A stretch of 18,942 bases of DNA from a virus. The position numbers were made by a program, and so were the translations under genes. The notes under the pieces were generated by a model. The model was not told the origin of the DNA and ran no database searches. It saw nothing but the letters and a program-made list of their open reading frames with translations. This document shows positions 1 to 1,903 of this stretch, one piece after another; positions within the stretch are counted from its first letter, which is position 1; every line of letters begins with the position of its first letter. Location of the stretch: UHGV virus genome UHGV-0121731; one strand, given 5' to 3'.

Positions 1-49
1 ATTAGTTAAATTACTCATATCGCTTCAATTGGCTCTAGTTAACTCTGGT

Positions 50-1045
50 TTATGGACGCATTATGGACATTCCTGACACCGGGTTAAGAGTCACAGCATC
101 TTGTAAGAAATCCGGTGCAAAGTGTGCGTAGGTCATAGTTTGCTGAATGTTAGAATGACCCAGGATGCGCTGCAATGTGATTATGTTACCTCCATTCATT
201 ATAAAATGTGTGGCAAATGTATGCCTCAAAACATGTACTGCTTGTCCGTCAGGTAAATCGGGTTTTACTTCCCTGAGAGCGTTACGCACTTTGTAGTAAC
301 TGGCATTAAAAAGCCTGCCTGAATTTTTGGTCTTGATCCGTTTAATCAGGTCCTGCGAAACGGGAATTGTCCTGCGTTTTCCGTTTTTAGTTTTCATAAA
401 CGTAACCATCTGGTTAATGATGTGTTCAGCTTTTAAATTAGACACTTCACTCCAGCGTCCACCAGTAGAAAGGCAGACCAGAGTTGCATTTAATTCATCA
501 CCATCAAGCACGGATAACAGCCGCGTAATCTCTTCACTGGACAAAAAAGCCATTTCCGTAACAGCTTCACGTAACCGTTTAATCTCACGGAACGGGTTGT
601 GAGAGTGGTATTCACCGGCGTCAATTAACTTGGTGAACATCCCGCTCATTATTGCCAGATGTCGATTTACGCTGGCTGGTTTCAGACCATCGTTCATCAT
701 TACAACGCGATAATCAGTTATCGTTTTCTTTGTTAGCTGGTCAGCTCTGGACACTCCCATTTCTGCAAATTTGGCGATTATTGTCGTTAAACGCCCCCGT
801 TCAATATCTCCACGCTCATGTGATTTTCCGTGATATATCCACCATCTGCCTAACAACTCTGTAAGAGTTCGGCGGTCGGCTGGTTTCTCCAACCACTCTT
901 TGTTGTGGTAGTTAACCAGGACATGACGTTCGAATGCTTGAGCTTCACCTTTAGTTTTAAATTTCCGCCTGATACGTTTTCCATCTGCACCCTGCGGTCT
1001 GACGTCCACTTCATAACGACCATCATCGAGCTTTTTAATAGACAT
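50..1045 (-). CDS. int: Tyrosine integrase, P2 Int family (331 aa)
   Basis: Full-length ORF with ATG at 1043-1045. Product begins MSIKKLDDGRYEVDVRPQG and has a C-terminal catalytic region (HVLRHTFATHF...LGHSNIQQTMTYAH) typical of phage tyrosine recombinases. It sits at the prophage end, divergent from the early operon, as in P2 lysogens. Confidence 0.9.
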   Translation of the reverse strand: MSIKKLDDGRYEVDVRPQGADGKRIRRKFKTKGEAQAFERHVLVNYHNKEWLEKPADRRTLTELLGRWWIYHGKSHERGDIERGRLTTIIAKFAEMGVSRADQLTKKTITDYRVVMMNDGLKPASVNRHLAIMSGMFTKLIDAGEYHSHNPFREIKRLREAVTEMAFLSSEEITRLLSVLDGDELNATLVCLSTGGRWSEVSNLKAEHIINQMVTFMKTKNGKRRTIPVSQDLIKRIKTKNSGRLFNASYYKVRNALREVKPDLPDGQAVHVLRHTFATHFIMNGGNIITLQRILGHSNIQQTMTYAHFAPDFLQDAVTLNPVSGMSIMRP

Positions 1046-1138
1046 AAAGCCCTCCGATGACGCTGTTTACTTCTACTACTTGAAAATTAATGCAATTTTC
1101 TTTCGTACATTTACTACACACATATGCTGAATAAATCG

Positions 1139-1438
1139 TCAGCCAGTCTTCTGGTCTGAGTGGTGCAAGGTTGTTGAGTCTTGCCCAATGTGTGCGAGAG
1201 CCGGGGCTATTTGTCCAGCTGCTGGATCTGTTTCATCAAACATGAACCAGTCACGATACTTGCGAAAGCGTGGATGCTTAAACAGCTTCATACCTGCTTC
1301 CATAGGCATTTTTGATTTTCCTGATTCATATCCATGATATGTGTAGTAATTAATTCCAATTAATTCAGCAAGTTCCTTAGTTTTAAGGCGTTCGGATTCA
1401 CGGATGAGCTTTAGTTTCTCACTTTGTTCACTTGACAT
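1139..1438 (-). CDS. C: Immunity repressor, P2 C-like (99 aa from the ATG at 1438; the ORF track extends to a TTG at 1456)
   Basis: Small ORF directly upstream of int on the same strand and divergent from the cox-like gene. The size from the internal ATG equals that of P2 C. The N-terminal helix-turn-helix-like segment is LKTKELAELIGINYYTYHGYESG. Confidence 0.65.
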   Translation of the reverse strand: MSSEQSEKLKLIRESERLKTKELAELIGINYYTYHGYESGKSKMPMEAGMKLFKHPRFRKYRDWFMFDETDPAAGQIAPALAHIGQDSTTLHHSDQKTG

Positions 1439-1531
1439 AATTTTGCTAATCTCCAATTATATTGTTACTTGGCAATTTGTGATTCGCTCAAAAAGGCTCT
1501 AGATGGCTCCAGTTGGTGAATCGCAAATCTT
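1439..1531. promoter_or_regulatory. Divergent early/repressor promoter-operator region (lysis-lysogeny switch) containing a tandem decamer GGCTCTAGAT-GGCTCCAGTT at 1495-1514
   Basis: Non-coding gap between the divergently transcribed C and cox-like genes. It holds two adjacent direct repeats of GGCTCYAGWT. A possible rightward promoter is TTTGTGA (about 1476-1482) with TAGATG (1500-1505), but exact promoter elements are not resolved. Confidence 0.45.
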
Positions 1532-1903
1532 ATGGAGGATAGCAAAGTGACGACAAATGTAGAAATTTCTTGTCCAACTAGCGATGAGGCAAGTTTCGAA
1601 AATGAAGCCAAACGTAAAAGCATTCAGATTTCAGAGCGCCCATCTGATTTGCTGTCGAAAGAAGGTTTTGCTCTTTACATCGGTAAGACACCACGCGCGG
1701 TGGCTGAAATGGCTAAAGCAGGAAAGCTGCCAGCCTTCTACATGACAGACCCATTAAAACCAAGAGGGAAAGCTGAATTATGGATTAATCGCCGTGAGTG
1801 GGACAAGTACGCAGCCCAGCTAGTTGATGAAGCTCCGACAGAATGGCATGACTGGAAAAATCGCATTAGTTACAGCAAATCAAGACATGGCCGTGCGGCT
1901 TAA
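1532..1903 (+). CDS. cox: Cox-like excisionase/early-promoter regulator; true start uncertain (ATG 1532, GTG 1547 or TTG 1649)
   Basis: First gene of the rightward early operon, opposite the repressor. The segment ALYIGKTPRAVAEMAKAGKLPAFYMTDP resembles the winged-helix DNA-binding core of P2 Cox/186 Apl-type proteins. The 123-aa ORF is longer than P2 Cox (91 aa), so an internal start is plausible. Confidence 0.55.
   Translation: MEDSKVTTNVEISCPTSDEASFENEAKRKSIQISERPSDLLSKEGFALYIGKTPRAVAEMAKAGKLPAFYMTDPLKPRGKAELWINRREWDKYAAQLVDEAPTEWHDWKNRISYSKSRHGRAA

Follow-up and report, generated by a model that had tools for sequence, protein, structure and literature searches.

A predicted Cox-binding motif shared by the lysogeny switch and the attachment arm of a P2-like prophage of the PhiD145 type

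The left end of UHGV-0121731, an 18,942-nucleotide stretch of DNA that we call the window, carries the genes int, C, and cox of an element that its sequence identifies as a P2-like prophage; it is inserted at the site published for PhiD145, the 5' end of pflA. Two short arrays of tandem decamers lie there, one at the lysogeny switch between C and cox and one in the attachment arm next to int. We propose, with a probability of about 0.8, that both arrays are cox boxes, i.e., predicted binding sites of the prophage's own PhiD145-type Cox protein, which would couple repression of the Pc promoter to excision. A sequence-only reading of the window had suggested that a Cox-type protein uses one motif at both the switch and the attachment site, and comparative and positional evidence supports this suggestion because the encoded protein is homologous to Cox, the motif is conserved across C types, it covaries with Cox at both sites, and the arrays stand in P2-like positions.

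Both repeats were found where they had been reported, GGCTCTAGTTAACTCTGGTTTATGG at 31-55 on the attachment side and GGCTCTAGATGGCTCCAGTTGG at 1495-1516 at the switch. The int stop codon occupies 50-52, so bases 31-49 are external to int as described, and the switch repeat is flanked by the starts of C (1438) and cox (GTG 1547). The attachment-side repeat had also been placed next to the prophage end, which is right in substance: the attachment (att) core is outside the window, 41-53 bp leftward of position 1, and the array is 72-90 bp inward of the prophage junction. The similarity between the two sites is real, but the count given for it, 16 of 22 positions, was off for the ungapped alignment of 31-52 with 1495-1516, which has 15 matches; the best 22-nucleotide frame between the two sites has 16. 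The exact stretch that they share, the octamer GGCTCTAG, occurs on either strand of the window only at 31 and 1495. The likeness continues for 10 bp leftward, with CGCTTCAATT at 21-30 and CGCTCAAAAA at 1485-1494, and three decamers are readable per site. At both sites, the period of the direct repeats is exactly 10 bp, or about one helical turn, and 10 to 11 bp is expected of cox boxes. Within the window alone, this pairwise similarity is marginal and not significant, and we do not rely on it. It is the comparison with relatives that makes the case convincing.

Using a position weight matrix (PWM) built solely from the switch decamers of other immunity types, we scored 37,866 positions in the window. 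Positions 31 and 1495, both on the plus strand, ranked first and second. Scored as tandem pairs, the sites at 1495 and 31 reached 26.0 and 25.2, compared with 7.4 for the best unrelated pair in the window; scored as triples, the arm (from 21) and the switch (from 1485) reached 32.2 and 28.6, compared with 5.7 for the best unrelated triple. The individual arm decamers scored 6.9, 14.4, and 10.9 and were the sole hits above 3 in the whole attP of phage D8. The third-best single match in the window, AGCTTTAGTT at 1407-1416 (12.1), is within the C coding sequence (KLKL codons). It is not tandem, the pro147-type C gene does not retain its DNA sequence, and it is probably due to chance. A scan for hexamers shared between the switches of other types and all 60-nucleotide stretches of the window was too coarse and was replaced by the tandem scoring; in that scan, the attachment arm shared 3 to 10 hexamers, compared with a mean of about 1, and was not always the maximum.

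Relatives were drawn from phage records, from IMG/VR, and from one genome per species. Most of the 80 IMG/VR loci end exactly at the int stop and thus were a source of switch diversity without attachment arms. At least nine switch (immunity) types share a nearly identical Cox winged-helix domain (PSDLLSKEGFALYIGKTPRAVAEMAKAGKLPAFYMTDPLKP...; the near identity runs from PSDLLSKEGFALYIGKTPRAV onwards) and an Int that is the same or 80% identical, and they differ in the C helix-turn-helix, the switch DNA, and the first ~30 residues of Cox. Every one of these types retains a tandem [A/G][A/G]CTCTAG[A/T]T array shortly upstream of cox (Table 1), and the distance from the end of the array to the cox ribosome-binding site is 13-20 bp in each. 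In the reverse test, a PWM made from the four decamers of the window only was compared with a null of 20,000 random 70-nucleotide segments. A tandem pair was found in all eight of the other switch types, with scores of 15.0-22.7 against a null maximum of 9.5. Because the motif is constant over these types, its reader should be a protein of constant specificity; Cox fits this description, and C does not. A motif search at related prophage ends had been named beforehand as a check, and the arm array proved to be identical in every relative with this Int. In Scandinavium and Pseudescherichia, where Int is 80% identical, the arm boxes read CGCTCTGATT AGCTCTAGTT AACTCTGGTT.

The cox product matches the Pfam family Phage_Cox (2.7e-29) and the P2 Cox crystal structure 4LHF (1.9e-6 over residues 33-102), and this exact protein is encoded on at least 1000 contigs. 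An N-terminal stretch of about 30 amino acids is specific to the immunity type. The most likely start is GTG 1547, which aligns with the ATG of all of the other switch types and is preceded by a conserved ribosome-binding site, GAGGATAGCAAA; ATG 1532, the annotation in phage D8 and in many 123-amino-acid database entries, is probably not the start. Prophages of Cedecea, Enterobacter, and Salmonella form a second Cox subfamily, with Cox proteins 55-61% identical and Int 56% identical to those of the window. Their Cox is without the ~30-residue N-terminal stretch altogether, and its recognition helix reads TPAAIRKMATAG instead of the TPRAVAEMAKAG of the window protein.

In this second subfamily, the motif is altered at both places. 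The switch has four to five CGCCCTAAAG-type boxes at a spacing of 9-11 bp, and the attachment arm has CGCCCTAAAG-like boxes against the Int arm sites (e.g., CGCCCTAAAA TGACCTAGTC followed by AGTGGACGTTATATGGACAC). A PWM from the second-subfamily switches gave 16.7-21.5 on their own arms (null maximum, 13.1) and 0.8 and 6.2 on window-type arms; conversely, the window-type PWM gave 2.6-2.8 on the second-subfamily arms. When switches were scored against arms for five Cox subfamilies, the diagonal of the matrix was the best of 120 permutations. The more distant phage 705R2 carries ACAA(G/A) decamers at switch and arm alike. Thus, the motif follows Cox: among at least nine C types with a common Cox domain it is constant, and in the second subfamily it is altered at both sites. 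As a separate observation, the switch of phage P88 (L008) shares ten hexamers (AATTAACACA region) with the arm of 705R2 (L009), more than it shares with P88's own arm.

The positions of the two arrays can be compared with those mapped in phage P2. In the annotated P2 record, the -35 hexamer of the early promoter Pe lies over the C start codon, and the Pe -10 is flanked by operators O1 and O2. Upstream of cox, the -10 of Pc is at 38-43 bp and its -35 at 18-23 bp, and the P2 switch boxes (CTAAAAGGCA TTATAAGACA TTAAACGCAA) lie 23-52 bp upstream of the cox ATG. At attP, the annotated Cox footprint extends over the int stop and has the core on one side and the P' arm Int sites on the other. The P2 boxes are 10-11 bp apart at Pc and attP, and P2 Cox assembles into a helical filament in which each DNA turn takes up one protomer (PMC3936717). 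The window arrays occupy the P2-annotated places of Pc and of the Cox footprint, with equal geometry. The predicted switch array is 33-62 bp upstream of the cox start, and the predicted arm array adjoins the Int arm sites, with its final base being the first base of the int stop codon. The two systems share a homologous protein, direct repeats 10-11 bp apart, one array 20-55 bp upstream of cox, and a second array between the att core and the P' arm Int sites. They differ in the motif, which in P2 is TTAAA(G/C)NC(A/C) (at Pc, at attP, and at P4 PLL), and with the window PWM, the scores of both P2 sites, switch and arm, fall in the null range. They also differ in that the window boxes all have the same orientation, in the extra ~30-amino-acid N terminus of the window Cox, and in the recognition helix, which reads STGAVRRMIDKG in P2. 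Cox boxes of P2 specificity were ruled out by the motif, by the two to three copies per site, and by the null-range scores of the P2 sites. The predicted boxes of the window are thus a different specificity class within the cox-box family.

Two other systems offer further points of comparison. Phage WPhi Cox recognizes a 12-nucleotide direct repeat at Pe-Pc (PMC5009727). Like the window, WPhi has few direct repeats at the switch (CCCTAGAAAGGAC / ACCTAGAAGGGAC) and, next to the Int sites of its P' arm, a repeat that partly matches (AAGGGAC / GAAGGGC beside GTGTGGACACTATGTGGACAC). It differs in motif, repeat length, spacing, and integration site, and its Cox has 90 amino acids and no N-terminal extension; furthermore, its switch repeat is the stated target of Cox, whereas binding in the window element is predicted. 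Binding by WPhi Cox was reportedly shown experimentally by Ahlgren-Berg et al. in 2009, with weaker binding at attP. In phage 186, one small protein, Apl, serves as both excisionase and regulator of pR-pL, coupling the lysis-lysogeny switch to excision as proposed here, and its sites at att and at the early promoters are direct repeats spaced by one helical turn (PMC7498355). Apl belongs to a different Cox/Apl subgroup (PMC3448106), its partner is a CI-type repressor, and the Int arm sites are of the 186 type (tgccGCCActt). The Cox sites of PhiD145 itself are not described in PMC3448106. The principle of coupling the switch to excision is already established for P2, WPhi, and 186; the motif in the window differs from the P2 and WPhi boxes.

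By analogy with these three phages, from which we infer physical binding, the exact position of Pc, and the effect on recombination, Cox protomers would bind successive decamers cooperatively, one per helical turn. At the switch, Cox on the array would occlude Pc and stop transcription of C and int, committing the phage to lytic growth. At attL, Cox bound beside the Int sites of the P' arm would shape attL for excision and block integration.

Several observations weigh against this interpretation. P2 has at least six boxes and footprints of ~70 bp, while the window has two to three recognizable boxes per site. No convincing Pc was placed in the window's own switch type by either a standard or a relaxed promoter scan. 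In dinucleotide shuffles of the attachment arm, 5.7% reach 16 of 22 matches with the switch (P of about 0.06). In P88, whose Cox is 53-57% identical, the switch array scores 12.4 and the arm match is weak (4.3; P = 0.08). The arm is invariant among all of the phages with this Int, with no independent variation within that subfamily, and window positions 1-20, to the left of the boxes, are equally conserved in Scandinavium, so arm conservation alone is not diagnostic. The conservation of positions 1-20 is probably due to their coding for an extension of pflA, which is described below.

Among the alternatives, the one that survives best, although we consider it improbable, is that the shared sequence reflects promoter or leader signals, with the complement of the box (TAGAGT or TAGAGC) serving as the Pc -10 and with the attL copy serving as a promoter or 5' leader for pflA. 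The relaxed scan found P2-like Pc promoters in types C, D, and L093 in which the -10 is TAGAGT, the box complement, 42-49 bp upstream of cox at the place equivalent to that in P2. A TTG-type -35 is present 18-26 bp upstream of cox, the same place as in the mapped P2 Pc. At attL, the boxes immediately precede an in-frame ATG (18-16, minus strand), which lengthens pflA. In type A2, the equivalent -10 place is taken by another hexamer, TATTCT, and no candidate was found in type A; the complement in the window's own type, TAGAGC, is a poor -10. The only candidate from the standard scan, ATCACA-16-TATAAT, was rejected because it overlaps the Pe -10 and would deprive C of a ribosome-binding site. 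Promoter signals leave the 10-bp tandem organization unexplained, and they also leave unexplained the joint change of the motif in the second Cox subfamily, which is integrated elsewhere and again has its boxes against Int arm sites. In addition, such signals are compatible with Cox binding, since P2 boxes overlap Pc, and would be more of an addition than an alternative.

We regard it as very unlikely that the switch decamers are instead operators of the C repressor, with the int-side copy being either a coincidence or another site for C. In favor of this reading, the decamers between C and cox are direct repeats, and P2-family C proteins bind nonpalindromic direct repeats (PMC3936717 and PMC1904268). 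Operators should vary with immunity, but the array is retained in at least nine types with differing C helix-turn-helix motifs. The array is also 35-55 bp downstream of the predicted Pe -10, whereas O1 and O2 of P2 flank that hexamer. We know of no role for C at attP.

Furthermore, several types have separate, type-specific direct repeats around the Pe -10. The layout of the predicted Pe (Table 1) matches that of the annotated Pe of P2, and in the other switch types that we read, TTGACA over the C start is followed 17 bp on by TAnnnT; the window's own type has AATTAT. Our repeat search recovered the P2 operators O1 and O2 (GTTTAGAT, 22 bp apart) as a positive control. At the equivalent place, it found repeats peculiar to the type in seven other switch types (P88, 705R2, L091, L096, L097, L098, and the variant of D8), such as ATGTGTCTT in L091 (21 bp apart) and GGTCGTGA in L098 (29 bp apart); none were reported at that place for the pro147 type or L094. 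In the window, the repeats at 1440-1448 and 1459-1467, the second of which reads ATATTGCTA in most relatives, are candidate C operators by inference only. The C protein of the window is 79-80% identical to those of two heteroimmune types; the differences cluster in the N-terminal helix-turn-helix, with hardly any in the C-terminal half. The immunity module has its mosaic boundaries within genes, namely, C (1139-1438) and the 5' part of cox (1547-1640).

The switch array is also enclosed by an inverted repeat, with arms of 11 nucleotides with one mismatch in the window and 12 nucleotides in D8. Equivalent inverted repeats were found in A2, A3, and L091 by search and in C, D, and L094 by eye, with arm sequences that are type specific. 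This inverted repeat (1475-1485/1518-1528) might serve as an additional operator copy in inverted orientation or form a hairpin in the transcript.

Chance resemblance between two short sequences is highly improbable. The shuffle frequency given above leaves room for it, as does a search for GGCTCTAG with one mismatch, which gave 12 hits against 8.45 expected. Yet no other position in the window scores as high as these two with an independent PWM, and their tandem scores exceed any other by a factor of more than three; eight other switch types have the arrays in the same place, each with a score that none of the 20,000 random segments attained; and the motif covaries between Cox subfamilies.

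No more credible is another factor acting at both places, either a host nucleoid protein (IHF or Fis) or Int itself: IHF and Int sites are present in the attP arms of P2-type phages, but the P2 IHF site is on the other side of the core, a specificity change in step with Cox across Escherichia, Enterobacter, and Salmonella prophages is not expected of a host factor, and the decamers (21-50 and 1485-1514) do not fit the P2-type Int arm consensus tgTGGaCa (PMC3448106). That consensus is separately present at 51-72, where the repeats TATGGACG / TATGGACA fit it with the position and period of the annotated P2 P' arm (TGTGGACACTG TGTGGACACTC), and it is unchanged in the second Cox subfamily while the decamers change. 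Phage D8 has, on the ogr side of the core (P arm), another pair of repeats that fits this consensus.

Table 1. Coordinates of features at the left end of the window and the arrays found upstream of cox in other switch types
Feature	Position	Strand	Description
Predicted Cox-box array, attP/attL P' arm	21-50	+	CGCTTCAATT (weak), GGCTCTAGTT, AACTCTGGTT; 10-bp period
Predicted Cox-box array, Pe-Pc switch	1485-1514	+	CGCTCAAAAA (weak), GGCTCTAGAT, GGCTCCAGTT; 10-bp period
cox	1547-1903	+	118 amino acids; winged-helix Cox domain at residues about 33-106
int	50-1045	-	Tyrosine integrase, PhiD145/pflA-site type; Pfam Int_N and Phage_integrase
Predicted Int arm-type sites, P' arm	51-72	+	TATGGACGCAT TATGGACATTC; 11-bp period; overlap last int codons
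C	1139-1438	-	P2-type immunity repressor, 99 amino acids; HTH_19 and HTH_3 matches, both under Pfam curated cutoffs
Predicted Pe	1432-1460	+	-35 TTGACA at 1432-1437 over C start codon, 17-bp spacer, -10 AATTAT at 1455-1460 (promoter scan)
Candidate C operators	1440-1467	+	Direct repeats ATTTTGCTA (1440-1448) and ATATTGTTA (1459-1467) flanking Pe -10
Inverted repeat around switch array	1475-1485 / 1518-1528		ATTTGTGATTC / GAATCGCAAAT
Left 2 kb of window			int, C, and cox, then replication genes B and A
Switch type A2 (L042)			GACTCAGAAT AGCTCTAGTT
Switch type A3 (L043)			GGCTCTAAGT AGCTCCAGTT
Switch type pro147 / S164			GGCTTCAAAT AGCTCTGGTT
Switch type vB_YpM_115 / E. albertii			GACTCTAAAT CGCTCTAGAT
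Switch type L045			AACTCTAGCC AACTCTAACT AGCTTTAGTT
Switch type L091			AACTCTAGGT GGCTCTAGTT
Switch type L093			GGCGCTAATT GACTCTAACT GGCTCTAATT
Switch type L094			AGCTTTAGAT GGCTCTAGTT

The left-end region of the window is 99% identical to the Peduovirus phages pro483, D8, 11W/12W, P24E6b, and vB_YpM_46. The match to P2 itself begins only at position 1914, and therefore the int-C-cox module is of a non-P2 type. We mapped att by comparing phage D8 (L001) with a lysogen junction (L002) and the empty K-12 site (L003), which placed the core, ACCAATAACTGAC, at the first codons of pflA. The host site of PhiD145 and PhiD160 is listed as 950293 (PMC3448106, Table 1), and the junction of the window's prophage is at the same position. 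Because the host site, with its core at the start of pflA, is identical, the Int of the window is very probably the same as that of PhiD145 and PhiD160. Two further features were seen near the core. In Yersinia phage vB_YpM_117 (L007, about 690-730), a deletion fuses the att core to the interior of int (~297 in the window) and takes out the P' arm, the Cox boxes, and the 3' end of int. Just to the right of the core, about 10-35 bp to the left of the window start, there is a G+C-rich hairpin followed by a T run (GCCCCCGCCGTAGCGGTATTTTCT; L001 1466-1490, plus strand), the stem of which has a different sequence in Scandinavium.

Integration also affects the host gene. It destroys the native pflA start codon (ATG to AAG), and the in-frame ATG in the phage P' arm extends PflA by 20 residues (MSNLTNCNTTENTATAGATK; loci L002, L053, L062, and L090-L094). 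The longer pflA is annotated in RefSeq, and the extension is open in Scandinavium and Pseudescherichia, with amino acid changes. This ATG is 31 nucleotides downstream of the int stop on the same strand, and pflA may be transcribed from the prophage's lysogenic operon. Given that the phage-supplied pflA start adjoins the boxes, the attL array might be more than an excision site, although we consider this doubtful. If it were true, the host pyruvate formate-lyase activase would be expressed from the lysogenic operon (Pc-C-int), and Cox binding at induction would regulate a host metabolic gene in addition to excision.

Taken together, these comparisons predict a concrete recognition sequence for the Cox protein of a very common E. 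coli prophage. They also suggest that this phage group can exchange immunity without uncoupling the switch from excision. The module that is exchanged would consist of the C helix-turn-helix, its operators, and the Cox N terminus, and the parts kept together would be the Cox winged-helix domain, its boxes at the switch, Int, and the attachment arm. The paired change of the motif in the second Cox subfamily would then be a natural specificity swap for winged-helix directionality factors.

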